This document shows, piece after piece, positions 5,761-55,928 of a stretch of DNA of 64,000 bases. A program made the translations under genes and the position numbers. The first letter of the stretch is position 1. Each line of letters begins with the position of its first letter. This DNA comes from Patescibacteria group bacterium. GTDB lineage: Bacteria; Patescibacteriota; Minisyncoccia; Phycocordibacterales; UBA9973. The stretch lies in NCBI GenBank assembly GCA_038061925.1, contig JBBTYD010000005.1:13477-77476 (forward strand), in the 5' to 3' direction. The notes beneath the pieces are model-generated. The model ran no database searches. It was given only the letters and a program-made list of their open reading frames with translations, and was not told where the DNA came from.

Positions 5761-5833
5761 TGCGCCCGGTTGGGATCGAACCAACGACCTTATCCTTAAA
5801 AGGGATCTGCTCTACCAACTGAGCTACGGGCGC
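5761..5833 (-). tRNA. tRNA-Lys (anticodon UUU)
   Basis: The reverse complement folds as a cloverleaf: acceptor GCGCCCG/CGGGCGC, D-arm GCUC-AGUUGGUA-GAGC, anticodon loop CUUUUAA, T-arm GUUGG-UUCGAUC-CCAAC, discriminator A. CCA is not encoded. Confidence 0.85.
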
Positions 5834-14058: not shown

Positions 14059-14075
14059 TTCTGATTATATTTAAT

Positions 14076-14978: not shown

Positions 14979-15010
14979 TTTGTTTGATCTGGTAAAATCA
15001 ACTTGTTATC

Positions 15011-28223: not shown

Positions 28224-28231
28224 AAATTTTA

Positions 28232-28723: not shown

Positions 28724-28731
28724 ATATTAAA

Positions 28732-29727
28732 TTAAAATTCTATGTTTATTTCTTTGCTTGTCGTCTCAAAAATTTTGTTTTGATTGTCAATCTGCAATTT
28801 TAAGACAGATGTTCCGGAAGCTCCCTCTGGCGCTTTAAGCGGCATTAAATTTTTTTTAAAGCCCGTTAAATTTACCAAACTGTCGTTAATGAACCAGCTC
28901 CAGATTAAGGTCGGATTTAATATTTCTTTTGGTGAAATAAAATAAGGTATTGCCTCTATTATCTCACTGCCTTGTATTTTATAAGAATTAGTCAGTGTTT
29001 TCTCCCAAATTGTTCCAAAGGAATTGTCGTTTTTATAAAATAATATTTTCGGCTCGGTCATTCCGATGTCGATACTTGCTTGACTTGAATATTTTTGGTC
29101 CACCGTTCTGGCGGTCACTGATATATTATTGGAATTTTCCAAATAGTCATTTGTGAAGATAAAGAAATTTTTACTATAACCTGAATTGTCTTGCGAATTG
29201 GTATAATCTTTCTTCCAGGCATAAATCATATTTTTGGGATCAGCCAGCGTATTGTTATTAGGAGAACCAGTTCTTATTTCCGGCATAGTCACCACTTTTA
29301 CTTCACTATCGGGTGTGGGCAAGGCTTTGCCGCGGTAAAACGGCGGGACATAAGAATCATTCGCTTGCCAAAGCAGTGTCATCACAGAAGGTCTGATTGT
29401 TATTTTTTCGTCTATCGCGCCGTCTGGTAGAGATATTGTGGCTATTACACTTGTTTCTTCACCAGCCGCCGGTGCGGTGGTTAAAAATGACTTTTTACTA
29501 ATTCCAGATAGAACAGTTTTGCCATTTACCGACCAAGATATTAAAACACTATCCAAGTTATAGACATAACTTTTTAAATTAATAGTTGTATTTTCGTATG
29601 GAGCTGGATTGGGAGGAACTATATTTACCAATATACTGTTGGACGAGTCCGCATTTACCTTTAGCGCGAGACTTCCGAATATCAGAACTATTATGATTAA
29701 ATATAACGATAAGAATTTAAATCTCAT
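28732..29727 (-). CDS. Secreted hypothetical protein (signal peptide), part of the T4SS-like cluster
   Basis: N-terminal signal peptide with ...LKVNA|DSS. Beta-rich with no recognisable enzymatic motif. Confidence 0.4.
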   Translation of the reverse strand: MRFKFLSLYLIIIVLIFGSLALKVNADSSNSILVNIVPPNPAPYENTTINLKSYVYNLDSVLISWSVNGKTVLSGISKKSFLTTAPAAGEETSVIATISLPDGAIDEKITIRPSVMTLLWQANDSYVPPFYRGKALPTPDSEVKVVTMPEIRTGSPNNNTLADPKNMIYAWKKDYTNSQDNSGYSKNFFIFTNDYLENSNNISVTARTVDQKYSSQASIDIGMTEPKILFYKNDNSFGTIWEKTLTNSYKIQGSEIIEAIPYFISPKEILNPTLIWSWFINDSLVNLTGFKKNLMPLKAPEGASGTSVLKLQIDNQNKIFETTSKEINIEF

Positions 29728-29778
29728 AGTTTAATTGTACCATATCCGCTTTATAAACTTACCAATTTTTTTTGTTTT

Positions 29779-31641
29779 TCACTTTGCGACTATTTCTCCT
29801 GCCTCTTGCTCTTCTTTTGCTTTTCTGTTTGATAGTATTTGGGAAGGATCGCTAGTGATAATTTGGTCTTCGGTATACGAAGAAATAATTTTTATGGCAA
29901 CATGTTTTAATCCTGCAAAGAATATGCCCTCCCCCACACTTGATTCTAAAAGAAGATATTTTTCTTCATCCGTAAGATTGAAAGTTTTTTGCAAGATATC
30001 AATTGTCGTGGGTGATTGTTTCAGCAAGAGCTGGATAGAAGAGTTCGTGATTATTGGCACACCATAGGGAGATTTCATAAAATCTGCCGCGTCTTGAGTG
30101 ATCGTGGAAAGACCTAAATAATATTTTCTGCTTCTTTTGGCGATCGAATAGAGAAAAGAAGCGGTATCTTCAGATTTCATCATCCACCAAGCTTCGTCGA
30201 TAACTAGTAAGCGTTTTTTCAAGTTTTTGCGTATCGCGTTCCATATATAATGCATAATTATATACATGGCGATCGGTTTAAGTTCATCTTCCATATCCCG
30301 AACAGAAAAAACAACAAACTTTTTATTTATATCCACGTTACTTGGTCTGTTTAAAAATGTTGCCCAAGAACCCCTGGTGTATTTTACCAATCTCTGCACG
30401 ACGGAATCGCTTCCATCCATTCCCGAGAGCACCATTTCAAAATCTGAAAGCAGAGGAGGCTCAATATTTGAAAAGTCTGATTCCGGAGTGATGTCTTTCA
30501 TGGCATAAGTTTCGGAAATGGCTCGATCAACCATCGAATCTTCTTCAGGGGTGAGTCCTCCCAACATCAATCGGAAAAGTCCGACCAGATTAATGATGTT
30601 TGAACGCAAAACATCTTCGGCTGTTTCATCTTCGCGCGGGATTGGCAAATCAAAAGGGTTTATATGATGGTCGGAAGAAAGAGAAATATTAAAATATCGT
30701 CCACCCACTGCACCCGCCAAGAATTCATATTCTCGTTCCGGGTCTATGACTATCACATCAACCTCAAACATTAAAGATCTTAAAATTTCCAATTTTGTCG
30801 CATAAGATTTTCCAGAGCCTGATTTGGCAAAAGTTACCGAGTTGTAATTTTCTAGAGAAAATCTGTCAAAGATAACCAAGCTTGAATTATGTCTATTGAT
30901 GCCATAAAGCACGCCTTTATTATCGGTCAAGTCGAAAGAGATGAACGGAAAAACACTGGAAAGTGGTTCGGAGTTTAATTTTTGATGAATATTCAGCAAA
31001 TCATTATTTGTCGGGATGACACTTTTAAAACCAGCTTCTTGTTGGAAAAGCGCTGGTTTGATGTAGATTAGTTTTGATTCAAGCATCGATTTTATTTCAT
31101 TTTCAATTTTAAAAAGCTCTAAATCATTATCAGCATAAATTGTGATATAAATACCCACATCAAACATTTTTTCCTGCGCTTGAATTAGACTGTCGCGTAA
31201 CCCCTCGAGATCTTGATAAGCAGTGTCCAGCACCGGGTCGCGCACCATACCTTTGGTTGCGCGCGCGCTTATTTGACTTTGCACTTCCGCAACTTTTTTC
31301 TGGAATTGTCGCAATATCAGCGAGGTGTCTATCGGGTGAATAAAGATTGAAATATCAAAAACTTTATCCAAATTGATTATCGGGGAAAACCAATTGTCCG
31401 TTAAAAATCTAGGGTAAGATATTATGAAAAACGTGCGGGCGATTTTATCGCCTAGGTTTAAGGATTTTGACTCAATTTTGAGCGCCGATGGCGCAATGAC
31501 ATCTTGGAGTTCCAGACTGGCTGACTCGTATATTTCTTCTGGCGTTATCGCCAAAATGGAAGCTTGCGTCTCATTAGGATAAGCGTTTTCCTTATTTGAC
31601 TGCGTATTTTTTTTTCCAAATAATTTATTTAAAATTCCCAT
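29779..31641 (-). CDS. VirB4/TraE/TrsE-family type IV secretion ATPase
   Basis: VirB4 N-domain pattern (LGDKIARTFFIISYPRFLTDNWFSPIINLDKVFDISIFIHPID), Walker A FAKSGSGKSY, Walker B region VIVIDPEREY and a C-terminal conserved block. Confidence 0.8.
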   Translation of the reverse strand: MGILNKLFGKKNTQSNKENAYPNETQASILAITPEEIYESASLELQDVIAPSALKIESKSLNLGDKIARTFFIISYPRFLTDNWFSPIINLDKVFDISIFIHPIDTSLILRQFQKKVAEVQSQISARATKGMVRDPVLDTAYQDLEGLRDSLIQAQEKMFDVGIYITIYADNDLELFKIENEIKSMLESKLIYIKPALFQQEAGFKSVIPTNNDLLNIHQKLNSEPLSSVFPFISFDLTDNKGVLYGINRHNSSLVIFDRFSLENYNSVTFAKSGSGKSYATKLEILRSLMFEVDVIVIDPEREYEFLAGAVGGRYFNISLSSDHHINPFDLPIPREDETAEDVLRSNIINLVGLFRLMLGGLTPEEDSMVDRAISETYAMKDITPESDFSNIEPPLLSDFEMVLSGMDGSDSVVQRLVKYTRGSWATFLNRPSNVDINKKFVVFSVRDMEDELKPIAMYIIMHYIWNAIRKNLKKRLLVIDEAWWMMKSEDTASFLYSIAKRSRKYYLGLSTITQDAADFMKSPYGVPIITNSSIQLLLKQSPTTIDILQKTFNLTDEEKYLLLESSVGEGIFFAGLKHVAIKIISSYTEDQIITSDPSQILSNRKAKEEQEAGEIVAK

Positions 31642-31645
31642 AATA

Positions 31646-32296
31646 TTATTCCAATTTTATCTTTCCTTCCACTTCTCCCGGATTGAAAACTTTATAAAAT
31701 ACTTCCACAATCTCTTCGGTGCCCAATTGAGCTGATTTTATGCCACAGCGACTAAGTCCTTGTTGAATTACGCTCACTCTTTCTTCCAGTTGAGATCTCT
31801 TTTCCTCAAAGTCTTCTTGATTGGCTATCTTTGCCTCGGCTTTATTTTTTCTCTTGAATAAATTTTTGAATATCCCGGGAAATATCCCGGAATCTGATTT
31901 TAAAACAGTATGGGTATAAGGAACCACGACAAAAAAGCTTTTTGTCATTATACTCACTGACTCGGTAAAATTCCTAATAAATTCTATATATTCTTTTGTC
32001 TGTAATTTAAGCAAAGGTTCGTTTTGCACTTTGGCTCTATCTTCTAAAAGCAAAATATAAGGTCGGATGTCGAGCCTTCTACTTTGCACTGATATTTGAA
32101 TAGTAAAATCCAAAGTATTGAGAAAACTTTGGAATTGAAGAATAGTCGCTTTTTGTTCATCGTCGGACTTTAAAGACAGGTTGACTGAGTTGGCGAGCAC
32201 GATTGCTCGCAATCCGCCGTCTTTCAGCACGATTACTCCATCGCGAACCTCCTTGATGGGAACAAATTCTTGAGTTGCTTTTGCGTTTAATGCCAT
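31646..32296 (-). CDS. Detached VirB4-N-terminal-like protein (216 aa) immediately upstream of the VirB4 ATPase gene
   Basis: ATQEFVPIKEVRDGVIVLKDGGLRAIVLANSVNLSLKSDDEQ resembles the extreme N-terminal segment of long Gram-positive VirB4/TrsE proteins. Its stop lies 4 nt before the ATG of the 620-aa VirB4 ORF. Confidence 0.45.
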   Translation of the reverse strand: MALNAKATQEFVPIKEVRDGVIVLKDGGLRAIVLANSVNLSLKSDDEQKATILQFQSFLNTLDFTIQISVQSRRLDIRPYILLLEDRAKVQNEPLLKLQTKEYIEFIRNFTESVSIMTKSFFVVVPYTHTVLKSDSGIFPGIFKNLFKRKNKAEAKIANQEDFEEKRSQLEERVSVIQQGLSRCGIKSAQLGTEEIVEVFYKVFNPGEVEGKIKLE

Positions 32297-32307
32297 ATTA
32301 TTTGATA

Positions 32308-32739
32308 TTATTTACCGTCCATGTGCTTGTTTAAATCTAATATGTCCAAGCTCCAAGCCAGATCCCGCAACTTATTTCCGCCCAGCCTGGCTTGATTTTC
32401 CAGCATTTCTCTTTTATTGTTTTCATTTGAAATTTTTAATTCTTCATTTTTGATTGTATTTTTGCGTCTTTTCCAAATATAAAGCTTGCTCTGTAAAATG
32501 TAATTAAATCCCGCTTCAATCATATTGATAAAAGGTTTATTATTTGGTCGATAACGAGCCAGGGCTATCGCCATACCCGCCACCGCTAAAATTGGGATCG
32601 CGCCAAAGAAGAGTCCTAGCAGTTTATAAAGTACAAAGCATAAGCCGGCTCCACCCGCCAAATAGACAAACTCTTTGAAAGTGAATGGGCCAAAAATTTT
32701 GTCTTCTATATCTAAAAATTGTGGTACTTTGAATTGCAT
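32308..32739 (-). CDS. PrgI/VirB3-like small membrane protein
   Basis: MQFKVPQFLDIEDKIFGPFTFKEFVYLAGG with two TM helices. It sits directly upstream of VirB4, as PrgI/VirB3 does. Confidence 0.45.
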   Translation of the reverse strand: MQFKVPQFLDIEDKIFGPFTFKEFVYLAGGAGLCFVLYKLLGLFFGAIPILAVAGMAIALARYRPNNKPFINMIEAGFNYILQSKLYIWKRRKNTIKNEELKISNENNKREMLENQARLGGNKLRDLAWSLDILDLNKHMDGK

Positions 32740-32751
32740 ATTTATTATTTT

Positions 32752-33426
32752 TTACTCGTCTGGTGATAGACGATACGGATCTCTCTTGGGCGGGTAGGAA
32801 GATGGCGGGGTTGTTTTTGTGATATTTTCCAGAGAATGTTCTGTTTTGACTATCGGAATTTGAACAGAAGCGGATAATTTTTGCGTTAAAATGGTGTCTG
32901 GTTTTTCTATTTTTTTTAGCATTTCTTCTCTACTTACATCAAAAGGAACACCGGCTGGCATAATTTCTGGAAACAGTTCTCTCTTCTCAACAATCTCAAT
33001 GCCGGCTTTATTTAGAATAGCTAGATCGCTTTTTGTTTGGGTGGCGGAATCCTCTTTAGGTGTTTGGATGTCTGAATCTCTTTGAAATATTTTTTTTCTT
33101 TCAATATTTTTAACTAATTCTTCTCGTATCTTTTTAAAAACCAGATCATTCATTTCATTTATTAATTCATTTACCGCTACTCCGGAAATTTTCATCCGTT
33201 TTTCTAATTCCCCTGGATAATTTTCTGGGCTAACAAGCCCAGAGAGCAATAACTCCGTTTCAAGCTCGAGGTCGCCTAATTGCTCAAAGGTATATCCCTT
33301 TTTTTCTCGCAGTCCCAAGATAGCCATTTTCCAATCAACCGCGTCAATCGCATTAACGGTTTCCAGCGAAAGTCCCCTTTTTGCTTTTTCTATTTTTATT
33401 TTTAACGAATCTACTGTATCATCCAT
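32752..33426 (-). CDS. Acidic hypothetical protein, paralogous to the next ORF
   Basis: Shares the block AI..(V/F)DW..MA...G.......E...(L/F)..ET.L.L.GL......L.......A.KI.GEVN..IF with ORF 33436-33924. Confidence 0.4.
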   Translation of the reverse strand: MDDTVDSLKIKIEKAKRGLSLETVNAIDAVDWKMAILGLREKKGYTFEQLGDLELETELLLSGLVSPENYPGELEKRMKISGVAVNELINEMNDLVFKKIREELVKNIERKKIFQRDSDIQTPKEDSATQTKSDLAILNKAGIEIVEKRELFPEIMPAGVPFDVSREEMLKKIEKPDTILTQKLSASVQIPIVKTEHSLENITKTTPPSSYPPKRDPYRLSPDE

Positions 33427-33435
33427 AATTTTTAA

Positions 33436-33924
33436 TTATATTACTAAATTGTCTTTTATGCTTTTGGGAGTTGGTAAATTCGTGGACGTTTCTGAGGTTT
33501 CGAATGGTTGATTCTCGCTTTCTTCTATAAAAGCGGAGTAATTTCCACCCGAAAGAATGAAATTAAGCGTTTGTTCCGGGCTTGGATTTTTATTTTTTAG
33601 ATTTTTCTTAATATTTTCTTCTATAAGGTTGCTTATTGGAGTAAATATTTTTTGATTAACTTCTCCAGTAATTTTAATTGCTTCGTCCTTACTGGTTCCC
33701 ACATTATTTTCTATATTTAGCGCGTATAAATTTCCATCTTCTAGACCTACTAGAACTAGCAGAGTTTCCACTTGAAAATCATTTATTTCACTTTCCGAAA
33801 GTAAATATTTTTTTCCTATCTCTTCCGCCATACTTCCCCAATCAAAAGTATTGATTGCCTCTTGCGTTTCTTTGGGCAATTTCAGCACTTCTTCTTTAAT
33901 TGTTTGTTGCAATTTTTCGGTCAT
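33436..33924 (-). CDS. Acidic hypothetical protein (paralog of 32752-33426)
   Basis: Same conserved block as the neighbouring ORF (FDW...ETLLVLVGLEDG...KITGEVNQKIF). No signal peptide. Confidence 0.4.
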   Translation of the reverse strand: MTEKLQQTIKEEVLKLPKETQEAINTFDWGSMAEEIGKKYLLSESEINDFQVETLLVLVGLEDGNLYALNIENNVGTSKDEAIKITGEVNQKIFTPISNLIEENIKKNLKNKNPSPEQTLNFILSGGNYSAFIEESENQPFETSETSTNLPTPKSIKDNLVI

Positions 33925-33936
33925 ATTTTTTAATTT

Positions 33937-36024
33937 TTAATGTCTTTCTTCTTTTGTTCCACTATCTAATTTTGCCTCCATTCTTATTTTTTGAGATGCT
34001 TCTCTTCTTTCTCTAGCGCCGAAACTATAATTATAACTTTTTCCTTTAAATTTAAATCCAATTTTACCCCCCTTTTCTATTCTTTCAGCATAAGCCCATT
34101 TTCTTTCCCTATTTTCTTTTACCACTTCATTTTTCGTATATGGAATTACCTCATTTTGCATTTCCTTTATAGTTTTTCCATTATTTACACCCCCTACTAC
34201 TGTTATTCCCGTTACTCCTGTTTTAATCTTATTTTTTTCGTCGTTTAGTGCTTTAATTTTAGCTATTGCTGTTGCTTCTTCTGGTGAACCGGATTTAGTA
34301 TCGAGTTTTTCTTGCCTTGCGCCGATTAAGTCTTTGTCTATTCTTTCAAAATCTTTTGCAACTTTATTTAATAATCCTTGCAAGTCTTGTTCTGCAGTGT
34401 TTACTGCTTGTTTTAACGGCTCATCCTCTCTCACCTCAAGCTCTTTGGCTCTCGCTTGTCGCTTTTTAACTTTATCAGCTCTGGCCTTTTCATATCCGCC
34501 TTCTTTAACTCCTAATCCAATTGCTTTTGATGATTCCAAGTTTAATCCACCCGCTTTAGCCAAAGCTCCAACGCCTTTTATGTTTCTCATGTCAAAAGAA
34601 GCCTTGGAACCATAATCTGCCGTTCTAAGAGCCATTCTGCCGGCAATTCCTTTTAATCCAGTTTCTTTTGCCGCATCCTGTAATCCCTTGCTACTTGCCG
34701 CCTTGGAGGCTAATCCTCCAATTCCAGAGGTCAAAGCTAATGCCGTTCCACCTGTTGCCGCGCCCAAGGCGAGACCTCCCGCCATCTTTGCGCCCTTCAT
34801 TATCATCTCTCCAAACTGACCCCCTCCCTTTTTGGCGAACTCAGTTGCCTTAAGAAGTAGAGCCATTATTACTATTGCCGGTATTAAGATACCCAAAATA
34901 GTCCCTAATATTGTTTCTGTATTTCCTCTGCTAAAGCTGGATATGTGTGGCAATATTTTAAATATTAGAAAGATAAAGAACATAAAAATCGACGCCATAA
35001 ATGACGTTGAAATTAAACGCTTAAACCAAGCATCCCATCCCAAATATTCGACACCGGCCAGTTTTGGCACAGTCCAGGACATAAAAGCAAAAGGAGAGAA
35101 TATAATTAATACCCACAGCTCAATCAATCTTCCTATAAACATAAGGCCGGCGATAAAAAACGCGTAAGCGGCCCAAAGCATAATTGCTCCGGCAATTATC
35201 ATTATTCCAAGTGTTAAGGAAAAAGGAAGCCGGTCCTCTTTTACAGTTTTACCTTCAATTGTTGTTGTTTTTAGCAGTTTTATAGTTTCTAACGTCATTA
35301 ATTTAGTGGCATCAAAATTTTTCCACATCGCGCCAGCTATATCTTTTCCATCTTTGAGTGCTGGATCTTTTGGCCTAGATGTTCCATCTGCATTTTTTGT
35401 GTTGACATCCAGGTTATTATAAAAAATTAACGCTAAGATGTTGGAAGAATCAATTACCACCTTAGTAAAAAACATAGAAAAGTTTATGAGCAAAGCTATA
35501 ATTACCACTCGAACTATTATTTTTTTTGTCTCGTGGCCCAGTCCCAAAATTGTTTGAATGGCTACATAAAGCAAAATAAGTATAAAGAAAATATTAGAAA
35601 AATCACGAACGACTCCCCAAGCGGCGGGAATAAAATCTGAGGCGCTTGTCACAGAGCTGTCTATTCCAAGATCGATCATAACATCAAAAAACTGCGCTGA
35701 TAGCCAAAGCACCCAACTAGGAAGCTGAAAAGTAGTGTAATAAAAAACCAATAACAAGCATCCATTAAACCAAGTCCAAGGCGATACACCGCAACCATCA
35801 ATAATCTCCTTTTTAAAGGGATCATTTCCCAAGGTGGCGGCAGCGGATGCCGCCTCTTTTTCTGCCGCCGCTTTATCCGCCACTTTATCCGCCGCTTTTT
35901 GTTCTGTTGTTCTTGTGTCTACTCCATATCCTATCTGCGCATTCACTCTTAACATCGGACTAAAAAGCCCGACCAAGATAATCAGTATCAAGAAATATGG
36001 AATTATTTTTTTTATTTTTTTCAT
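33937..36024 (-). CDS. VirB6/TrbL-like polytopic membrane protein with a long Gly/Ala-rich, coiled-coil C-terminal region
   Basis: Signal peptide, a large extracytoplasmic loop, at least 6 TM helices, then G/A-rich repeats and a charged coiled coil. Confidence 0.45.
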   Translation of the reverse strand: MKKIKKIIPYFLILIILVGLFSPMLRVNAQIGYGVDTRTTEQKAADKVADKAAAEKEAASAAATLGNDPFKKEIIDGCGVSPWTWFNGCLLLVFYYTTFQLPSWVLWLSAQFFDVMIDLGIDSSVTSASDFIPAAWGVVRDFSNIFFILILLYVAIQTILGLGHETKKIIVRVVIIALLINFSMFFTKVVIDSSNILALIFYNNLDVNTKNADGTSRPKDPALKDGKDIAGAMWKNFDATKLMTLETIKLLKTTTIEGKTVKEDRLPFSLTLGIMIIAGAIMLWAAYAFFIAGLMFIGRLIELWVLIIFSPFAFMSWTVPKLAGVEYLGWDAWFKRLISTSFMASIFMFFIFLIFKILPHISSFSRGNTETILGTILGILIPAIVIMALLLKATEFAKKGGGQFGEMIMKGAKMAGGLALGAATGGTALALTSGIGGLASKAASSKGLQDAAKETGLKGIAGRMALRTADYGSKASFDMRNIKGVGALAKAGGLNLESSKAIGLGVKEGGYEKARADKVKKRQARAKELEVREDEPLKQAVNTAEQDLQGLLNKVAKDFERIDKDLIGARQEKLDTKSGSPEEATAIAKIKALNDEKNKIKTGVTGITVVGGVNNGKTIKEMQNEVIPYTKNEVVKENRERKWAYAERIEKGGKIGFKFKGKSYNYSFGARERREASQKIRMEAKLDSGTKEERH

Positions 36025-36039
36025 TGATAATTAATATCC

Positions 36040-38295
36040 TCAGTATCCATTTACTGTAATCGGAATGGTGAGGATTGTTGGGGATGGTGACGAATCTTTG
36101 ACTACAACTTTAGTAGTTCCATACGCAACGCCTGTGACTGTGATGATGTCGAGCTTAAGGCCGGTAATTGTGGCGGTTGCCACGTTGGTATCCAGTTGAG
36201 AAGGAGTTTTAATGGTATAAGGCGCTACTCCGCCATAGGCGCCACCAGTTATGAGCGTATTGATCGTTTGTCCAACACCGACTGATAACGAGACAGGCGA
36301 TGTTATTGTAATGTTAGTGCTAACAATTGCCGCTGATGACGAATCTTTGATCAAAATTGCCGATTGACCTTCGGTGAGACCGGTGATTTGGAGAATATCA
36401 TCAACAATTTTGCTTGTTATCATTGCGGTATTCAACTCTTCTTTAATACTGTAGGGTTTTACACCGCCCGCTATAGGCACATTGATTGTTTGTCCGACCC
36501 TGACTGAAACATTTTGTGGAATGGTTAAGTCTTTGGGACCAATTACGATGATCTCGATCCTGACAGTTTTTACTGGATTGGAAGAATCATTTATTTCTAC
36601 ATAAGTCGAACCCGACGCGACACCGATAATAACCAAGCTTGTGTCGGAAAAGGCTACCACCGCTTTTGTTTCATCGGGACCTGTTTTCATACTATAGTTC
36701 CCTGCACCGCCGGATATGGTTACAGTCTTTGACTGGCTAACACCAATTGACATATTTAGCAGATGGGTAGCTCCATTAGCCAACAATGCTCCTATTTCAT
36801 TTACTGTGACACTGACAGTGACAGTTTTTGCGGGTATCGATGAATCGTAAACCGTGACTGTGACCGGAGTGGTGGTTGGCGTGTTAAGGGCAGTGATTAC
36901 GAGTTTTGGACCAGAAGAGTTAGAAACATCAATCGTGGCAATCGCTTTTGTTTTTGACGCGTCTGATTGGATTATATAGTAAGGCGCTTTGCCGCCAGAT
37001 ATATTTGTACTAGTTCCTTGTTGGACCCTGACTGAAACATTTTGCGGAATATTCAAAACTCCGTCTCCGCCTGCGGTAGTAGCGCCAGATAACGTAGTTG
37101 AACTGTTAAGAGTAACACTGCCGTTATAGCTCCAATTGTTGTTTTCTGAGGCTGATGGATTTACGGTGCTTGCGAGCGCATTCAAACCTTTATTCAAAAA
37201 GTTATTTATTAGTGCGTCAAAAATAGCAGAAAGACTATTACCCAGTGCTGCGCCTAGCTCCGTTTGTCTTAAATTGGATCCTAACGCGTCCATTATTTGA
37301 TTTCCCACTACTGTTCCGGGAGTTGTACTCACTAAACCGCCCGGACAAACATTGGGGCCGGTTGGATTACTCCAGGCGGCTCGCGCGGCCTCCTTATCAG
37401 CGTTATATTTGTTATTATAGGCGTCTATGCCTTTATCGTCAGTCACGGCTGGTTGCGGGTTAGCGGCATCCCAGGTTTTATCATTAAATTTAAAACTTGG
37501 TTTTAAAAATTCATTTATGCCATTGTTATAATTCGGATTGCTTGGACAAATTTGGGGAGACAAGAAACCCATACTTTGTTGAAGCAGGGATTGTATTTTC
37601 TGTGCTGGCGCCATTAATGTTCCTTCTAGCCGGCTTGCCAGATTCTGCTGGATAATCATATTAAATCCGAGATAATTATTTTGTGGATATTGCGTATTGA
37701 TTAAAAATCCGTTCCACCCTCCGTAGTTAAAATCATTTCTAAAGCGGACAAGCAAGCGAGGATCATTTATTACCTTAGACAAACTGTATTGCGCATTATA
37801 TGCGAGCTGACTTTTATAACTAGATATTACATTGAGTGCGGTTTGTGGACCGAAAGGAAATCTAAAAGTATCATAGCCGATCATATCCACTAATCTCCTA
37901 ATTTCAGATTTGGCGATATCCCTAAAGAAAGATTCCGGATTTTCTATAAAGAGAGGTGAACCGTGGAAATCGGAATTAATCCAATTAATAGTGGCTTGAG
38001 TTATTCTCGCTAAGACTGATTTTGCGATTGTCATAAGAATTTGACGAAGGAGAAAGTTTGCAAAATCTTTTAAATGGAGACTCGTGTTTACTACCGTTGA
38101 TGGTACACCTATTGCGTGGAAAGCTTTAGATATCCAGTTTCCGATTGAGTTAATCGTGCTTACATTAGTATTAGCCACATCAGTAACTGGTAGTTGCGCT
38201 CGCGCTCTTTCTGGTATAGATAACAAAACAGAAGGCAATACTATTAAAACAATCAAGAGAGCGGAGATGAATTTTATTGTTTTGTTGTTAACCAT
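36040..38295 (-). CDS. Large secreted surface protein (751 aa) with four C-terminal Ig-like repeats
   Basis: Signal peptide (ISALLIVLIVLPSVLLS). The N-terminal alpha/beta domain has no known catalytic motif. Four repeats of about 90 aa each carry the motif (I/P)xGG.xPY.I(K/Q) ... (V/I)TG(L/V). Confidence 0.45.
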   Translation of the reverse strand: MVNNKTIKFISALLIVLIVLPSVLLSIPERARAQLPVTDVANTNVSTINSIGNWISKAFHAIGVPSTVVNTSLHLKDFANFLLRQILMTIAKSVLARITQATINWINSDFHGSPLFIENPESFFRDIAKSEIRRLVDMIGYDTFRFPFGPQTALNVISSYKSQLAYNAQYSLSKVINDPRLLVRFRNDFNYGGWNGFLINTQYPQNNYLGFNMIIQQNLASRLEGTLMAPAQKIQSLLQQSMGFLSPQICPSNPNYNNGINEFLKPSFKFNDKTWDAANPQPAVTDDKGIDAYNNKYNADKEAARAAWSNPTGPNVCPGGLVSTTPGTVVGNQIMDALGSNLRQTELGAALGNSLSAIFDALINNFLNKGLNALASTVNPSASENNNWSYNGSVTLNSSTTLSGATTAGGDGVLNIPQNVSVRVQQGTSTNISGGKAPYYIIQSDASKTKAIATIDVSNSSGPKLVITALNTPTTTPVTVTVYDSSIPAKTVTVSVTVNEIGALLANGATHLLNMSIGVSQSKTVTISGGAGNYSMKTGPDETKAVVAFSDTSLVIIGVASGSTYVEINDSSNPVKTVRIEIIVIGPKDLTIPQNVSVRVGQTINVPIAGGVKPYSIKEELNTAMITSKIVDDILQITGLTEGQSAILIKDSSSAAIVSTNITITSPVSLSVGVGQTINTLITGGAYGGVAPYTIKTPSQLDTNVATATITGLKLDIITVTGVAYGTTKVVVKDSSPSPTILTIPITVNGY

Positions 38296-38347
38296 AAATT
38301 TGTAACATTATTATAACCTGTATTAGCCCTAGAGGGGAGTCCTGCTC

Positions 38348-39271
38348 CTACTGCTGGGATAATAATTTTTGGTTGATTGCGCTCATAAGATTGTCAACTT
38401 CTGAATCTAATTTGGTCATGTTTTCTTCGTATTTACTTATGCCGCCCAAAGCCATAATAGTGTCGCTGTCATAAAGTTTTATATCGCTTATATTTTCTAC
38501 TAATCTCTCTAACGAGTTTACAACATTTAAATGCAAGGTTGAAACAGATTGTGGCACAGTCATTTTAACCATGCCCTCTACCACTTTTTTCGTTTGTTCG
38601 ATAATTGGATCAAGTTTTACAAGCACGCTGGAATCGACAGTATTTTCATCAACCATAAATTTTTGCAGTACATCCAATACCGTATAATCCATTGCCGGAT
38701 ATTTTTTTTGAAGGCTGTTGAAGGTATTGATATAATTTGTGAAAGTTTTAACGCTGTCGTCACTTGTTGTTTTTATTTCGGAAATTAAAAACACTTTTCT
38801 TGGCGGAGAATTTTGAATCTTGTCTGCCAAAGAAGCGCTCAGTGCGTCTATCGTTGCTTGATCCATAGGCCCATTTTGGCTGGCGGCTGCTACAGTCGCG
38901 AAAAGTTCTCTAGAAAATTTGTCTGTCTGTGTCAAGTTTTCTTTCCCCTGATTATCTCTATTTTCCAGCAAGGGTAGTCCTTGCTGGTTCTGTTCTGTTT
39001 TTGATTTTAATTTACCTATGGCGACATTGTCCGGTGTCCCGGGAGCTGTTTCTTTCTTAGTCGGATCGAGTCCATATAAACCTTCTTCCCAATCCGGTAT
39101 TCCATCGCCATCGGTATCTTTATTTACTAAATCTTTTATTGTCACATTATCATAAGTTAAGCTATTTTCTTGATTAACCGATTGATATGTTTCCTTATTT
39201 TTAAATACGGAAGTTGTTTTTAGAAGAAAAAGCGCGACAACAAAAACCACCGCCAAAACGATCCAAAACAT
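38348..39271 (-). CDS. Membrane-anchored protein with a calcium-binding-like DTDGDGIPDWEE motif
   Basis: N-terminal TM, a DxDxDGxxDxxE motif (thrombospondin-type-3 / dockerin-like), then an alpha-helical domain. Confidence 0.4.
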   Translation of the reverse strand: MFWIVLAVVFVVALFLLKTTSVFKNKETYQSVNQENSLTYDNVTIKDLVNKDTDGDGIPDWEEGLYGLDPTKKETAPGTPDNVAIGKLKSKTEQNQQGLPLLENRDNQGKENLTQTDKFSRELFATVAAASQNGPMDQATIDALSASLADKIQNSPPRKVFLISEIKTTSDDSVKTFTNYINTFNSLQKKYPAMDYTVLDVLQKFMVDENTVDSSVLVKLDPIIEQTKKVVEGMVKMTVPQSVSTLHLNVVNSLERLVENISDIKLYDSDTIMALGGISKYEENMTKLDSEVDNLMSAINQKLLSQQ

Positions 39272-50705: not shown

Positions 50706-51686
50706 ATGGATAAAAAACTTACTGGTAAACACGCAGACGAATCATACTTAGACCTATTGGAGCATATAATGAAAAATGGCGCAACCAAGACCGATCGCAC
50801 CGGGACAGGAACAAAAAGCATATTTGGATATCAAATGAGATTCAATCTTGCCGACGGTTTCCCTCTTTTGACCACCAAAAAAATGCCAATTAAATCTCTA
50901 ATTCATGAACTCTTATGGTTCATGCGAGGTGATACTAATTTGAAATATTTAGCAGATAATAACGTCCATCTTTGGGATGAATGGCCATATAAAGCATATT
51001 TAATAAGGAATAAAATTAAGGTGCCAAAAACTAATTCTGAAGAATGGAGTACTGGTATCAAAGAATTCGTAGAAAAAATAAAAACTGAAAAAAATTTTGC
51101 GAAAGATTATGGAAATTTGGGACCGATTTATGGATATCAGTGGCGGAGTTGGCCCGCTTACGCTGAAGCTTCGGCGGGTCAGCCAGCTCACAAATATTAT
51201 ATTGATCAATTAAAAAACGTGATAGAGGAAATTAAAAAAAATCCAGATTCGCGCCGGCTGATTGTTTCGGCTTGGAACGTAGCGGATATAGAAGAGATGG
51301 CGAAAGCCGGACTGCCTCCCTGCCATTCCTTATTTCAGTTTTATGTCATTAATAAAAAGTTATCTTGTCAACTTTATCAGCGTTCTGGTGATACGTTTTT
51401 AGGTGTCCCCCTCAATATCGCTTCTTATTCTTTGCTGACTATGATTATCGCGCAAATTTGCGGACTGGAATTGGGAGAATTCGTCTGGACTGGCGGTGAT
51501 GTGCATTTATATTTAAATCATTTAGAACAAGCAAAATTACAACTTTCTCGACGTAATGATATTCGCCCATTGCCGAAAATAAAAATAAATCCTCAAAAAA
51601 ATAAATTGGAAGATTTCACGATAGAAGATTTTGAATTAATTGATTATCATCCGCAGGAAGCCATAAAAGCGCCCATTGCCGTATAA
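50706..51686 (+). CDS. thyA: Thymidylate synthase (ThyA, long form with insertion)
   Basis: [33 protein letters not shown]...FPLLTTKK and the catalytic LPPCH. The start was reassigned to ATG at 50706. The ORF-track start at 50370 adds 112 residues of non-homologous sequence overlapping the DEAD helicase gene. Confidence 0.85.
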
Positions 51687-51696
51687 TAATGATATT

Positions 51697-52185
51697 ATGA
51701 TTTCACTAATAGCGGCCATTGGTAAAAATAATGAACTCGGAAAAGGCAATGCTTTACTCTGGCATATGCCGGCCGATCTGAAACATTTTAGGAAGGTTAC
51801 TTTATTACATCCGGTGGTGATGGGCAGAAAAACTTTCGAAAGTATTGGAAAACCATTACCTAATAGGAGAAATATCGTGATTACCCGAGATGCAAATTAC
51901 AAAAAAGCGGGAGTTGAAATCGTTCATTCTTTAGCTGGAGCGCTTGATTTATTTTCTGACAAAAATGAAGAGATTTTTATAATTGGTGGGGCGGAAATAT
52001 ACAAACAAACTATGCCGATTGCTGACAAACTCTATATAACTCACATCGAAGCTGAAGACAAAAAGGCAGATGCCTTTTTCCCGAAAATTAATGAGAACGA
52101 ATGGCGAGAAACTTCACACGAAGAACATCAATCAAATGAAAAAAATATTTTCTCGTATATTTTTTCGATTTACGAAAAAATCTAA
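51697..52185 (+). CDS. folA: Dihydrofolate reductase
   Basis: MISLIAAIGKNNELG...LPW...DL..F...T....VVMGRKTFESIG.PLPNRRNIV. The start is 51697 or 51676. Overlaps the thyA end. Confidence 0.8.
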   Translation: MISLIAAIGKNNELGKGNALLWHMPADLKHFRKVTLLHPVVMGRKTFESIGKPLPNRRNIVITRDANYKKAGVEIVHSLAGALDLFSDKNEEIFIIGGAEIYKQTMPIADKLYITHIEAEDKKADAFFPKINENEWRETSHEEHQSNEKNIFSYIFSIYEKI

Positions 52186-52538
52186 GGATCCTTATCGGTT
52201 TTAATACGAATAAAAATATCTTTACCCTCGGGGGATTTTTCTTTTTTATATTTTCTATTTTTATTTTTTTCTATCTTTTCGATTAGTTCCTTTTCCAAAT
52301 TAAAACCCATTTTTTCGCACATCCCAAGAATAAATATCATCACATCCGCAAATTCTTCAGCCACCCCAGGCCGATTTCTGTTGTGTTTAGAAAACGCTTC
52401 AGAAAGTTCTTCATACGCCCGACAAAACTCCAGCGCGATATCAGTCGTGTTAAAACCTTTTTCCAGTTTATTTCTCATCACCTCTTTTTGCAATTTTTTC
52501 AAATCCACCATAAAATTATTGGTCTTTATACGATTCAA
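52182..52538 (-). CDS. MazG-like nucleoside triphosphate pyrophosphohydrolase
   Basis: All-alpha NTP-PPase motif: EL.EA......EEFADVMIFILGMCEKMGFNLE. Confidence 0.6.
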   Translation of the reverse strand: MNRIKTNNFMVDLKKLQKEVMRNKLEKGFNTTDIALEFCRAYEELSEAFSKHNRNRPGVAEEFADVMIFILGMCEKMGFNLEKELIEKIEKNKNRKYKKEKSPEGKDIFIRIKTDKDP

Positions 52539-53010
52539 TTTTCTTATTTACAACTTCTAACTCTACTCCGGCTTTTTTAAAAACTATTTTTGATTGTTGG
52601 GTTGCGTGATAATCTTTCAAAGCAACCACTCTTTTGATGCCCGCGTTTATAATTGTTTTGGCGCAAGTATAACAAGGAACCATTTTACAATAAAGTGTTG
52701 ATTGACTAATCGCCACCCCGCAACGCGCGGCATTGGCGATGGCATTTAATTCCGCGTGAGCGGTCCTCAGACAATGACGAGAGATTGTTCCATCATCTCC
52801 GGTGACAGTATGCATTTCATGTCCAACATCGTCGCAATGCGGTAAACCTATAGGCGAACCCACATATCCAGTCGCCAGGATTCGCTTGTCTTTAACCAAA
52901 ATTGCGCCTGAACGGCCACGTTCGCAAGTGCCACGCGAACCAATTATATCAATCATTTGAACAAAATATTCATCCCAGGATAACCTTTTATGTTTTGTAA
53001 CTTTTTTCAT
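52516..53010 (-). CDS. dCMP deaminase (cytidine/deoxycytidylate deaminase family)
   Basis: Zinc motifs HAELNAI and PCYTCAKTIINAGI. Length and context fit dCMP deaminase. Confidence 0.75.
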   Translation of the reverse strand: MKKVTKHKRLSWDEYFVQMIDIIGSRGTCERGRSGAILVKDKRILATGYVGSPIGLPHCDDVGHEMHTVTGDDGTISRHCLRTAHAELNAIANAARCGVAISQSTLYCKMVPCYTCAKTIINAGIKRVVALKDYHATQQSKIVFKKAGVELEVVNKKIESYKDQ

Positions 53011-53041
53011 TTCTTTAATATACTCCCAAGAATCTAAAAAT

Positions 53042-54058
53042 TCAATCCGCGTCTTTTTTCCCGAGCGCTTGGAGAACTTTCAAATACATTGCTTCAACAA
53101 TCTTCTGCTGTTTTCTACCCGTCGTTACATAGTGATCTAGCCCGGGCGCAGAGTTGATTTCAATAATATAATAGTCGCAACTTTTCGGGTCTTTTTTAAT
53201 ATTCCCTTCTGTTACCATGATATCCACTCCAGAAATACGTAGCCCCATATCTCTAGTGAGGTCTATGGCAATTTTTTTAAAGTTGGGATGAATAGTATTG
53301 GTGACGTCGGAAGAATCGCCGCCAGCAGACAAATTAGCATTATCCAGCAAATAGATTTTTTTATCTTTTGGTAAAATGCTGTTTAAAGTATAACCAGTAT
53401 GTTTTAATTTTAATTTAATTTTCTTGTCTTTAAAATTTATTTTTGTATCGCGCCCCGATATAATAAAAAACTTCTGTTTTTGTTTTAGCAGTGTTCGGAT
53501 AGATTGTCGTCCGTCGCCTGTTACCGAAAGAGGTGAGCGTTCATAAGCGGAAATAACTTCTTTATCTAAAACTACAATTCGATAATCACGTCCCGGCAGA
53601 TATCGCTCCATAATAGCTACTTTATCTTCCTTGAAAATTTCTCGCAGATTCAGAATTAACTCTTTTTTATTCCACGCCAGACATACTCCGAAACCCTGAC
53701 TCTTGCTATTTGGTTTCACAATCACCGGATAGCCTAAGCGTTTGGCATAATTTAGCGCATAAGGAATCTTCCGATTGCTTTTAACTATCTTGGCCCAACT
53801 ATCTTTAAAAACTGTCTTACCTTCTGCGACTGGATAACCTCTCTTCTGCATAAAGAATTTAGCATAATCTTTATCCCGAGCGATATCGGAAGAAGCGATA
53901 TGATTGAGATCTAATGAATACATTCGAAGTGACCGCACCACGCCATTTTTATAAATTATCTGCGCGGCAATACTCCACTCTTTTTCCACAACAACTCTGG
54001 CACCAACCTTGGGGGCAAGTTTCATAACAAGTTTAGTTAAATATGGAAGCTTGTTCAT
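53042..54058 (-). CDS. ATP-grasp ligase (RimK/CofF/MptN-like or cyanophycin-synthetase-like amino-acid ligase)
   Basis: ATP-grasp fold features: KPNSKSQGFGV, ...LDNANLSAGGDSSDVT... and IIEINSAPGL. Overlaps the upstream CofE-like gene by 4 nt. Confidence 0.55.
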   Translation of the reverse strand: MNKLPYLTKLVMKLAPKVGARVVVEKEWSIAAQIIYKNGVVRSLRMYSLDLNHIASSDIARDKDYAKFFMQKRGYPVAEGKTVFKDSWAKIVKSNRKIPYALNYAKRLGYPVIVKPNSKSQGFGVCLAWNKKELILNLREIFKEDKVAIMERYLPGRDYRIVVLDKEVISAYERSPLSVTGDGRQSIRTLLKQKQKFFIISGRDTKINFKDKKIKLKLKHTGYTLNSILPKDKKIYLLDNANLSAGGDSSDVTNTIHPNFKKIAIDLTRDMGLRISGVDIMVTEGNIKKDPKSCDYYIIEINSAPGLDHYVTTGRKQQKIVEAMYLKVLQALGKKDAD

Positions 54059-54783
54059 TTTTTTCTTTTTAAGTTGGCAAAAAGCGGAGCGTAAATATCC
54101 TTTTTAGGGTCAATGATAAGTTCATTTCGCTTTATTTTATTGGTGAAAACAATTGGCGCTTCTCTTATTAAAGCGAGTGGTTGTCTTTCTTGACCTTCTC
54201 CCATGCAGAGCACCGCCGAAGTGGCGAGACTGTCCGCAATATTGGTTTTGGACATTCTTAATACTTTTCCAAAAATATCTTTTTGACCTATATAATTCTT
54301 AATGCCCCGAAAACCGGCATACCCCAGCGCTATCCCTAACGCTCCAGCGCGCAGGGGCATTAATCGCGAGTCGGTTATAATAATTCCCAAATTTTTCAGC
54401 CGGTAATTATGCATCAGTTTTTTTCGCAGAATTTCCGCGCGTTTCCAACTATTTTTTGGCAAGAGAATGAGTTTGCCATTTGCATTTGATTCATCAATGC
54501 CGGCCGAGGCGAGCATCATGCCATCTTTAATAGTCATCCAGACGATTTTAGTTTTTAGCGCAAAATCGCTTTCCTTCTTTAGGAGTTTAATTTTTTGGTT
54601 TATTCTTTCTCTGGTTTTTGCGTTTTTTTTATACTCTGAAGTCCTGCCTTCAGACAGAGATACTATTTTTGAAGTGATGACTAGAACAGATTTTTCGGGA
54701 AGTTTTTTTATATGTTTTAAAATAAATGAGAGCAAGTCTTCATTTTCTCGAAATATTCCAGTTTTTATAGCTTTAATTCGCAT
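54055..54783 (-). CDS. CofE-family gamma-glutamyl ligase (F420-0:gamma-glutamyl ligase-like, FolC2-like)
   Basis: Matches CofE blocks: VLVITSKIVSLSEGR, SAGIDESN, IIITDSRLMPLRAGALGIALGYAG, YIGQKDIFGKVL and IADSLATSAVLCMGEG. Confidence 0.75.
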   Translation of the reverse strand: MRIKAIKTGIFRENEDLLSFILKHIKKLPEKSVLVITSKIVSLSEGRTSEYKKNAKTRERINQKIKLLKKESDFALKTKIVWMTIKDGMMLASAGIDESNANGKLILLPKNSWKRAEILRKKLMHNYRLKNLGIIITDSRLMPLRAGALGIALGYAGFRGIKNYIGQKDIFGKVLRMSKTNIADSLATSAVLCMGEGQERQPLALIREAPIVFTNKIKRNELIIDPKKDIYAPLFANLKRKK

Positions 54784-55297
54784 TTTTATATTGTAATAAA
54801 ATAGTGCCTTGTTTATTAAGCTTCTTGATTGATTTTAAAACAAATTTGTGTTTTTTGAAAATAGCGCCAAAAAACATTGGAACACCAGTGGTAAAAACAT
54901 ACGGTTCAATAGTTACGAAAAGTTCATCCAACATTTTATTCAGGAGACAAAAATTATAAACCTTGGATCCGCCCAAGACTGCCACATTTTTATATTTTTT
55001 CTTTTGTAAAAATTTCTCTAAATTAGACTTTTGGGGGTTAAAGAAAATTACTGAGCCAACGGAAGAAAATTTCTGGACTTTAGAAGTTAAAACTATCGTG
55101 TCTCTCTTTTTAAGACGCGTTTCGGCTAATTTATAAGTATTGCGCCCGACAATTACAGCCTCCATTTTAGTTAGCGATTTTTGAAAAAAATTCCAGTCTG
55201 CCAGACTCGTCCAATTTGTCCCAGATTGACTATTTTGCGCTATGCGCCCGTCGATGCTGGAAGCGACAAAAGCCGTATACTTAATTTTTGTTGCCAT
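54773..55297 (-). CDS. RibD C-terminal domain / DHFR-like reductase family protein
   Basis: AFVASSIDGRIA...WTS..D..F......EAVIVGRNTY....L..R..IVLT and VAVLGGSKVY, the RibD_C pattern. Confidence 0.6.
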   Translation of the reverse strand: MATKIKYTAFVASSIDGRIAQNSQSGTNWTSLADWNFFQKSLTKMEAVIVGRNTYKLAETRLKKRDTIVLTSKVQKFSSVGSVIFFNPQKSNLEKFLQKKKYKNVAVLGGSKVYNFCLLNKMLDELFVTIEPYVFTTGVPMFFGAIFKKHKFVLKSIKKLNKQGTILLQYKNAN

Positions 55298-55928
55298 ATT
55301 TTCTTAAAATATGAATTCCTAAATATGAAAGAGGCGTGTAAAAAATTCCCATCACTACCTTATAAATCCACCATGGGATTATAATTAACAGTATTGTTTT
55401 TATGGGATAAACACCAATAAAAGCAATAGACATAAAGACAACTGTATCAAATAACTGGGACCAAATATTAGACAAATTGGAACGTAACCAAAAATACTTT
55501 TCACCAATATGTTTTTTAAAAAAGAAAAAAGAAAGAACATCTTGATATTCAGCAATAACAAAAGCAACGAGTGATGCTATGGCGAAACGTGCAGAAAGTC
55601 CGAAAATTTGGTTATAGCCGTTTTTTACCCAAAGGCCTTCGTGCGCCCAGGGCATAGCCGTAGAGATAAAAGAGTAAAGTAAAAAAAGCACGATACTTAA
55701 AAAACCAGCCATAACGAAATTGTTTGCCATCCGCTTACCATAAACTTCTCCAATCACATCCGTCATGATAAAAACTATTGGAAAAGAAAAAACCGCCACT
55801 GAAAGGTGCGTGCCAAAAAGAAAAGGCATTAGTTTTATCCCCAAAGTATTCGCGGCAAAAAGCGAACTGATATAAAGAGTCAAACAAATAAGAATTTTCT
55901 TATAATCTCGTTCAGTCAGTGTTTGCAT
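55281..55928 (-). CDS. YhhQ/VUT-family transporter (queuosine-precursor transporter-like)
   Basis: 6 TM helices. The motif FPIVFIMTDVIGEVYGKRMA is typical of the YhhQ (DUF165) family. Confidence 0.55.
   Translation of the reverse strand: MQTLTERDYKKILICLTLYISSLFAANTLGIKLMPFLFGTHLSVAVFSFPIVFIMTDVIGEVYGKRMANNFVMAGFLSIVLFLLYSFISTAMPWAHEGLWVKNGYNQIFGLSARFAIASLVAFVIAEYQDVLSFFFFKKHIGEKYFWLRSNLSNIWSQLFDTVVFMSIAFIGVYPIKTILLIIIPWWIYKVVMGIFYTPLSYLGIHILRKYGNKN

Follow-up and report, generated by a model that had tools for sequence, protein, structure and literature searches.

The subject of this study is a block of eight genes (positions 50706 to 55928) on a 64,000-nucleotide stretch of contig JBBTYD010000005.1 from a Patescibacteria (Paceibacterota) genome; the whole stretch is referred to here as the window. 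All eight genes were confirmed at these coordinates with clear family matches that leave no doubt about the superfamilies (Table 1), and their products include a homologue of the F420-0:γ-glutamyl ligase CofE, a stand-alone ATP-grasp ligase, a dihydrofolate reductase (DHFR)-like protein in addition to canonical FolA, and a membrane carrier of the Vut_1 family, encoded beside enzymes that supply deoxythymidine monophosphate (dTMP). The affinities of these proteins and the gene neighborhoods of related loci make it probable, in our judgment, that the block is a module for folate uptake, reduction, and polyglutamylation coupled to the dTMP cycle.

Table 1. Genes of the block, with their positions in the window and the profile matches of their products
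Gene or product	Coordinates	Strand	Family matches and remarks
thyA, thymidylate synthase ThyA	50706-51686	+	PF00303, 379 bits; TIGR03284, 438 bits (cutoff, 108)
folA, canonical dihydrofolate reductase	51697-52185	+	PF00186, 211 bits; public call of 162 amino acids
MazG-like all-alpha nucleoside triphosphate pyrophosphatase	52182-52511 (or to 52538)	-	PF12643, 28.2 bits (cutoff, 27); public call of 109 amino acids
dCMP deaminase (ComEB-like)	52516-53010	-	PF00383, 74.8 bits; TIGR02571, 124 bits (below cutoff of 219)
ATP-grasp ligase, stand-alone, 338 amino acids	53042-54058	-	PF08443 and PF07478, both above cutoff
CofE-like (FolC2-type) γ-glutamyl ligase	54055-54783	-	PF01996, 134 bits
DHFR/RibD_C-like protein, 174 amino acids	54773-55297	-	PF00186, 45.7 bits; PF01872, 46.5 bits
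Vut_1/QPTR/YhhQ-family membrane carrier	55281-55928	-	PF02592, 138.5 bits; TIGR00697, 132.1 bits (cutoff, 50.95)

The locus and its gene products

Directly after secE-nusG-rplK, the minus-strand genes follow one another without gaps, with frame overlaps of 17 nt between the Vut_1 and DHFR-like genes, 11 nt between the DHFR-like and CofE-like genes, and 4 nt between the CofE-like and ATP-grasp genes, so that both the gene content and the overlapping arrangement described in the original prediction were borne out. Identical sequence is present in Hainich groundwater metagenomes, and exact-match look-ups found the identical gene string in independent assemblies of the same population. The folA reading frame opens at a TTG codon at 51676, and a start at 51697 is favored by the public call and by the resulting E. 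coli FolA-like beginning, MISLIAA. Neither folC, folP, folK, folB, tgt, nor any F420 synthesis gene was seen in the 64 kb of the window. Promoter and terminator scans gave matches at chance level only, PADLOC found no link to defense systems, and Rfam scans of the window and 13 related loci found no tetrahydrofolate or preQ1 riboswitch, a result that favors neither substrate.

The DHFR-like protein finds its best PDB match in the DHFR of Thermotoga maritima (1CZ3/1D1G), over its full length and with an E value of 1.5e-27. Alignment with E. coli FolA and with the FolA of the window identified invariant equivalents of E. coli DHFR Ala7, Trp22, Asp27, Gly43, Thr46, Leu54, Arg57, Gly95-Gly96, and Tyr100. 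In DHFR, Asp27 is the catalytic acid and Arg57 binds the α-carboxylate of the substrate glutamate. The protein passes PF00186 (45.7 bits; cutoff, 25), while among the RibD models it passes the broad Pfam RibD_C model alone (46.5 bits; cutoff, 24.1) and is far below the cutoffs of the pyrimidine reductase models (TIGR00227, 29.7 versus 150 bits; TIGR01508, 34.2 versus 186 bits). Its identity as an uncharacterized, RibD_C-type alternative pterin reductase, which had been proposed from the gene string, was rejected on these grounds. Given the 1CZ3 match, the invariant DHFR residues, and the low scores on riboflavin-type reductase models, comparison at the sequence level assigns the gene as a second, bona fide DHFR of the T. 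maritima type. Full-length similarity and conserved catalytic and NADPH/folate-binding residues are shared with the T. maritima enzyme; unlike that enzyme, this one is a second DHFR beside canonical FolA and is translationally coupled to transporter and glutamyl ligase genes.

Membership of the CofE-like protein in the CofE superfamily is clear: it scores 134.1 bits on PF01996 (cutoff, 25), with metal and GTP motifs kept, and matches CofE of Archaeoglobus fulgidus (Af-CofE; 2G9I) with an E value of 2e-23. Sixteen relatives all keep the motifs GIDxSN, ITD(S/T), and MGEG without change, and Af-CofE shares them. Among NCBIfam models, the protein scores highest on TIGR04132, “putative folate metabolism gamma-glutamate ligase,” with 208.8 bits against a curated cutoff of 350; scores on the CofE equivalog models also fall below cutoff (TIGR01916, 140.3 versus 180.65 bits; NF009809, 136.6 versus 274 bits). 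The Chlamydia protein CT611 (FolC2), a CofE homologue of COG1478, complements an E. coli folC mutant (PMC1971073). By homology and context, the enzyme encoded here is a predicted folylpolyglutamate synthase that would work as Chlamydia FolC2 does. Both are single-domain CofE homologues that lie among folate genes with no F420 genes seen nearby. They differ in that the TIGR04132 score of the window protein is below cutoff and in their genetic setting: the Chlamydia gene sits with genes of de novo folate synthesis (folKP, folA, and folX), whereas the CofE-like gene has a salvage context of putative importer, Thermotoga-type DHFR, and ATP-grasp ligase and is also linked to ThyA, SHMT, and FolD.

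The ATP-grasp protein passes two superfamily models (Table 1), and its conserved lysine (K115) and Mg-binding residues (D279, E300, and N302) do not vary among 15 relatives, but it is below the cutoff of every NCBIfam model. The likeness to RimK/CofF/MptN-type enzymes raised in the original prediction was not upheld, as shown by scores on TIGR00768 (50.2 versus 143.4 bits), TIGR04443 for CofF (28.8 versus 300 bits), and NF040720 for MptN (44.2 versus 350 bits); RimK structures match at an E value of about 1e-3 only. The nearest structures are instead the G domain of CphA2/CphA1 and the C-terminal ATP-grasp domain of GshAB (E values of 1e-27 to 3e-30). The public label “cyanophycin synthetase” is wrong, because the protein has the G-domain core only: it does not have the CphA1/CphA2 architecture of N, ATP-grasp G, and Mur-ligase M domains, its score on the model is 173 bits against a cutoff of 850, and the alignment covers only the G-domain region, from about position 206 to 471 of 862. 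In an exhaustive search, 285 clusters (50% identity) match at E values of ≤1e-30, mostly stand-alone proteins of 320 to 360 amino acids that align end to end. By sequence, the protein is best described as a member of an orphan stand-alone family with the CphA and GshAB ATP-grasp domains as its nearest relatives. Relatives of ∼640 amino acids (P0423, P0440, P0450, P0460, and P0492) were considered as informative fusions and set aside, as they consist of two tandem ATP-grasp modules; their C-terminal halves are 29 to 33% identical to the ATP-grasp protein of the window.

Neighborhoods and carriers in related loci

Gene neighborhoods were compared in 92 loci whose CofE-like proteins are 36 to 76% identical to that of the window, comprising 12 GTDB genome loci from a single-protein scan and 80 metagenome loci from a scan with a CofE-like alignment. 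Open reading frames (ORFs) were called, clustered by all-against-all BLASTP, and labeled with the window proteins and with Pfam and NCBIfam models, and genes within four ORFs of the CofE-like gene were counted as neighbors. Scans of viral contigs with the CofE-like and ATP-grasp alignments returned nothing useful.

The most frequent neighbor is Vut_1 (34 of 92 loci), with the T. maritima-type DHFR and the ATP-grasp ligase next (25 each), then dCMP deaminase (18), canonical folA (15), a membrane protein family designated f10 (14), the MazG-like gene (11), thyA and FolD (6 each), and SHMT and the dCTP deaminase Dcd (5 each). An association with folate genes, as for FolC2-type ligases, is therefore found here too, with a DHFR near the CofE-like gene in 36 loci and FolC in 1 in addition to FolD, SHMT, and ThyA. 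Where at least 2.5 kb of sequence is available on both sides, 34 of 42 loci have at least one of the listed neighbors and 24 of 42 have a folate-dependent enzyme. With several hundred genes in a genome, a given single-copy gene would be adjacent by chance in about 1% of cases, an estimate of ours and not the result of a computed control. The observed clustering greatly exceeds chance and recurs, rearranged, in relatives.

Roughly eight gene orders were found. The window has rplK-Vut_1-DHFR-CofE-ATPgrasp-dCMPdeaminase-MazG-folA-thyA, and loci L014 to L017 have CofE-DHFR-Vut_1 upstream of the ATP synthase operon. Elsewhere, the orders are ATPgrasp-f10-DHFR-CofE, CofE-ATPgrasp-f10-DHFR, ATPgrasp-Vut_1-CofE-SHMT-FolD, CofE-SHMT-FolD, rplK-CofE-folA-Dcd-thyA, and Vut_1-CofE alone in unrelated surroundings. 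The flanking contexts differ accordingly (rplK, the ATP synthase operon, or SHMT-FolD), and because adjacency is kept through repeated rearrangement, it points to a functional link rather than inherited synteny. Synteny of the ligase and reductase genes with thyA and folA, on which the original prediction relied, was found in the close clade only; in the deepest genome relatives recovered, the unit that is kept is the triad of CofE-like, DHFR-like, and Vut_1 genes. These neighborhoods strongly support the earlier view of the CofE-like ligase, reductase, and transporter as a unit for folate salvage and retention, and TIGR04132 as best model agrees with it. In one locus (L037:1-9703), ATP-grasp, dCMP deaminase, and rplK are followed by an rplK-like gene, Vut_1, CofE, dCMP deaminase, and MazG; rplK and dCMP deaminase are duplicated around the module, by local rearrangement or as an assembly chimera.

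Further loci were sampled through ATP-grasp homologues. In four of six such contigs, the CofE-like gene is directly upstream with overlapping frames, and in the other two (L020 and L022), MazG, dCMP deaminase, folA, and thyA lie beside the ATP-grasp gene. The latter two suggested that the ligase might be part of the dTMP block only. This was overturned by metagenome loci without dTMP genes nearby: in 12 CofE-anchored loci, the ATP-grasp gene stands beside the CofE-like, DHFR-like, f10, or Vut_1 gene, with no thyA, folA, dCMP deaminase, or MazG within four ORFs. On the basis of the 6 sampled contigs and the 12 CofE-anchored loci, the ATP-grasp ligase is linked to folate genes in general and belongs to the salvage module as an optional fourth component; its earlier description as a real partner of the CofE-like ligase was confirmed to this extent.

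Vut_1 is a member of the QPTR/YhhQ family (COG1738), passing both PF02592 and TIGR00697 (Table 1), and is 25 to 31% identical to E. coli YhhQ. It scores far below the cutoff of the E. coli-type YhhQ model NF008406 (49.3 versus 252 bits). The family named in the original prediction thus stands, but it is a family of queuosine precursor transporters, and a folate or pterin substrate is proposed from gene context. Function was assigned to QPTR from its association, physical or genomic, with tgt, queA, and other queuosine genes (PMC5372724). No match to E. coli Tgt or QueA was found by tblastn in the window and 95 related loci (905 kb in total). Unlike characterized QPTR/YhhQ genes, Vut_1 clusters with folate genes and with no queuosine gene and is positionally interchangeable with an unrelated membrane protein, f10.

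Vut_1 and f10 are never both neighbors of the same CofE-like gene (hypergeometric P = 8e-4), and they share a slot that immediately precedes the DHFR-like or CofE-like gene on the same strand. The two proteins have no detectable homology (hhalign probability, 0.7%), and the pattern resembles a non-orthologous displacement in which one importer has taken the place of another. The 235-amino-acid f10 protein is polytopic and has no Pfam, NCBIfam, or PDB sequence match; its family has ∼2,000 members, and those with source names are from Patescibacteria. Loci with f10 include L012 (6778-7485), L033, L039, L042, L047, L051, L053, L056, L061, L062, L079, L095, and L109 (4595-5302). The AlphaFold model of f10 is weak (predicted local distance difference test score, 65.5), and its top three Foldseek matches, all to S components of energy-coupling factor (ECF) transporters (RibU, 4HUQ chain S, and BioY), are not significant (probability, 0.75 to 0.92; E > 0.1), so that the resemblance of f10 to an ECF S component is a hint only. 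The family is a candidate for a new family of vitamin, possibly folate, carriers. For Vut_1, gene context leads us to propose folate or a pterin as the substrate; pterins and 7-deazaguanines share a 2-amino-4-oxopyrimidine face, and a switch of substrate is chemically plausible.

The triad Vut_1-DHFR-CofE was also found, in Patescibacteria-like form, on a contig labeled “uncultured Gammaproteobacteria” (L013), which carries a LOOT RNA (RF03000; 82.8 bits) at 2602-2724; the bin label may be wrong.

In one relative (L021), Dcd (8061-8597) stands where the window has the MazG-like and dCMP deaminase genes, with SHMT 4 kb further on. This replacement supports a role for the MazG-like protein and dCMP deaminase as a dUMP supply route. 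Dcd also adjoins the CofE-like gene in L096, L098, and L103. ThyA proteins of L007 (12330-13187), L008, L011, L029, L032, and L063 are only 26 to 29% identical to ThyA of the window, whereas neighboring genes are 65 to 90% identical. The possibility that this divergent gene, 27% identical, is something other than a thymidylate synthase was rejected, as its product remains above the cutoff of the thymidylate synthase model (128.9 versus 108.35 bits). The pattern suggests that thyA was replaced by a xenologue within the clade.

A predicted folate salvage module and its alternatives

The catalytic residues kept in the DHFR-like, CofE-like, and ATP-grasp proteins, the tight operon, and its recurrent linkage to folate and dTMP genes are consistent with two coupled sets of genes. 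(i) Vut_1, the Thermotoga-type DHFR, the CofE-like ligase, and the ATP-grasp ligase would salvage and retain folate. Vut_1 (or f10 elsewhere) would bring folate or a near pterin precursor in from the host or the environment, and the second DHFR would reduce imported folate to tetrahydrofolate. The CofE-like enzyme would then add γ-glutamates and so trap the cofactor in the cell, as predicted from homology to Chlamydia FolC2 and from context, and the ATP-grasp enzyme might perform a further carboxylate-to-amine ligation on the same cofactor, which is the weakest step of the scheme. (ii) The MazG-like protein, dCMP deaminase, ThyA, and FolA would generate dUMP from dCTP or dCMP and then dTMP: the MazG-like enzyme would convert dCTP and dUTP to dCMP and dUMP, dCMP deaminase would convert dCMP to dUMP, and ThyA would convert dUMP to dTMP, with FolA recycling the dihydrofolate produced by ThyA. 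The organism itself, an ultra-small groundwater bacterium, probably cannot make folate.

Several known systems bear on the ATP-grasp step. GshB and CphA activate the α-carboxylate of a residue in an isopeptide context (γ-Glu-Cys or the β-Asp-Arg backbone) and add an amino acid, and CofF and MptN, which belong to an ATP-grasp lineage different from that of the window protein, put an α-linked cap or extension on the tails of F420 and methanopterin, respectively. The most economical guess, by analogy, would be an α-linked cap or extension of the γ-glutamyl folate tail; an alternative would be a dihydrofolate synthase-like reaction in which salvaged pteroate receives its first glutamate. Synthesis of the archaeal F420 tail by CofE and CofF (with MptN for methanopterin) has the same two-ligase logic, a γ-glutamyl ligase of the CofE fold followed by an ATP-grasp ligase, but it acts on another cofactor, and the ATP-grasp protein described here is outside the RimK/CofF/MptN family and related to the CphA G and GshAB domains. 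Uptake by FolT and polyglutamylation by FolC in folate-auxotrophic Firmicutes likewise follow the logic of importing the vitamin and trapping it by polyglutamylation. In contrast to that system, every component here is non-orthologous and no ECF energizing module is evident, f10 being only weakly ECF S-like.

A number of observations count against the folate salvage interpretation. The score of the CofE-like protein on the folate-type model is below the curated threshold, and the view of folC, folP, folK, and tgt is limited to 64 kb of this genome. The related loci are phylogenetically connected, so that the neighborhood counts are not independent events, and among the most distant CofE-like loci (36 to 50% identity), about one in two has none of the listed neighbors. 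No CofE-like, Vut_1, or DHFR-like gene lies within 7 kb of the ATP-grasp gene in L020 and L022. Every characterized QPTR/YhhQ member carries 7-deazaguanines, and carriage of folate is known for none (PMC5372724, PMC11130926). Finally, FolC and CofE-like proteins, which are non-homologous glutamyl ligases, can coexist and be co-operonic, as they do in L089, a contig of 2.8 kb. There, 4 nt separate the end of a bona fide folC (258-1727; TIGR01499, 330.8 bits; cutoff, 162.65) from the CofE-like gene (1732-2487), whose product scores 287.7 bits on TIGR04132. The same arrangement ties the CofE-like family to folate once again.

The arrangement in L089 is also the chief support for an alternative in which a canonical FolC is encoded elsewhere and the CofE-like enzyme works in addition to it (e.g., with FolC adding the first glutamate and the CofE-like enzyme the tail) or serves another pterin. 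When the window and 95 related loci (905 kb) were searched by tblastn with E. coli FolC, however, the only match was that in L089, and Chlamydia FolC2 by itself complements an E. coli folC mutant, which leaves a supplementary role a real but doubtful possibility. Far less credible is the public annotation of the protein as “coenzyme F420-0:L-glutamate ligase.” The PF01996 match agrees with it, but the protein scores lower on the CofE equivalog model TIGR01916 than on folate-type TIGR04132, and no F420 synthesis gene (cofC, cofD, cofG/H, or fbiC) was seen in the annotated 64 kb of the window or among the contigs sampled from relatives. The neighbors of the CofE-like gene across the 92 loci are folate and dTMP genes. 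In addition, F92 and G153-C155 of Af-CofE are reported to sandwich the deazaflavin ring of F420 (PMC10861534). These contacts are not conserved in the CofE-like protein, where an HMMER alignment places I80 and L141-M142-P143 opposite them (R234 is outside the aligned region), and we regard a true F420-0:γ-glutamyl ligase as highly improbable.

For the ATP-grasp ligase, a function unrelated to the folate tail, i.e., synthesis of a small peptide like GshB or CphA or a role alongside MazG and dCMP deaminase in the nucleotide branch, would suit its nearest relatives, which make glutathione and cyanophycin, and the dTMP genes beside it in L020 and L022, and most CofE-like loci are without an ATP-grasp gene. 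We nevertheless consider this rather unlikely, as the ATP-grasp frame overlaps the CofE-like stop codon in the window and in the four contigs noted above, and in 12 loci the gene accompanies the salvage genes or f10, in several orders, with no dTMP gene within four ORFs. It is unlikely, too, that Vut_1 is a mere passenger beside the folate genes with a queuosine precursor (preQ0, preQ1, or queuine) as its substrate. Its TIGR00697 score, on a model named “queuosine precursor transporter,” and the 7-deazaguanine substrates of all characterized QPTR members are as that alternative would have it. Opposed to it are the position of Vut_1 near CofE-like genes in several gene orders, often with overlapping frames; the filling of its slot by non-homologous f10; its low score on the E. 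coli-type model; and the lack of tgt, queA, and preQ1 riboswitch matches in the loci searched. Import of folate or a pterin by Vut_1, with retention by the CofE-like ligase, remains our preferred interpretation.

Patescibacteria make up a large share of bacterial diversity, and their hosts supply most of their cofactors. A 2025 survey of 4,581 genomes of the candidate phyla radiation (CPR) found folA, glyA, and folD in 55 to 81% of genomes, most cofactor synthesis absent, and no folate transporter homologue in the genomes examined, and it made no mention of folC, polyglutamylation, or an F420 ligase (PMC11974145). The need for a folate salvage system fits these findings, with folate enzymes common and no transporter found. 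Since 2007, a CofE homologue has been known to act as FolC, and such proteins have a curated model. In the literature searched, including that on cofE, folC, or polyglutamylation in CPR bacteria, no earlier description was found of a Patescibacteria-wide module of this ligase, a QPTR or f10 carrier, Thermotoga-type DHFR, and an orphan ATP-grasp protein or of the new QPTR substrate and new folate tail enzyme that such a module would imply.

The operon offers cloneable candidates for the missing CPR steps of folate import and polyglutamylation, including a candidate importer from a family so far known for queuosine precursors only and, in f10, an interchangeable and unannotated alternative. It also exposes two public mislabels, a FolC2-type ligase named as an F420 enzyme and an ATP-grasp protein named as cyanophycin synthetase. 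If the interpretation is correct, thousands of annotations would be corrected, the QPTR family would gain a new substrate class, folate tail chemistry would gain a new enzyme, and the vitamin dependency could be useful for cultivation. More speculatively, and with considerable reservation, a four-part system might fill the folate “holes” of Patescibacteria: a retasked QPTR carrier or f10, a DHFR and a CofE-fold ligase that replace FolA and FolC for salvage, and an ATP-grasp ligase that builds a non-canonical tail (an α-linked cap or a non-glutamate residue), yielding a lineage-specific folate derivative.

Other features of the window

The remainder of the window carries replication origin genes, a type IV secretion-like cluster, genes of the diaminopimelate (DAP) pathway, and ribosomal genes. 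The type IV secretion-like cluster (26877-39271, minus strand) includes a weak PrgI match, a TraC-like protein, a VirB4/TraG-type ATPase, a weak match to a type IV secretion system pilin, and several large proteins without a family; it adjoins the origin genes rnpA, yidD, yidC, dnaA, and dnaN and resembles the type IV secretion system of Patescibacteria discussed in bioRxiv 10.1101/2025.01.22.634366. An ORF of 1,675 amino acids (595-5622, plus strand) with SpvB, FG-GAP, RHS-repeat, and YD-shell matches is polymorphic toxin-like, in a tiny genome. A ParE-type toxin gene (91 amino acids) and a putative antitoxin gene (73 amino acids) lie at 57264-57768 (minus strand), between the secE-nusG-rplK string and a gene for a SIMPL domain protein. 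The compact diaminopimelate cluster (11365-15748, minus strand) consists of dapF, a weak match to the shikimate kinase family (SKI), an aminotransferase gene, dapA, and dapB and is of note in an organism expected to be without most biosynthesis. Five of the six tRNA genes of the window are located at its distal end (61533-62887, both strands), and the sixth is at 5761-5833.

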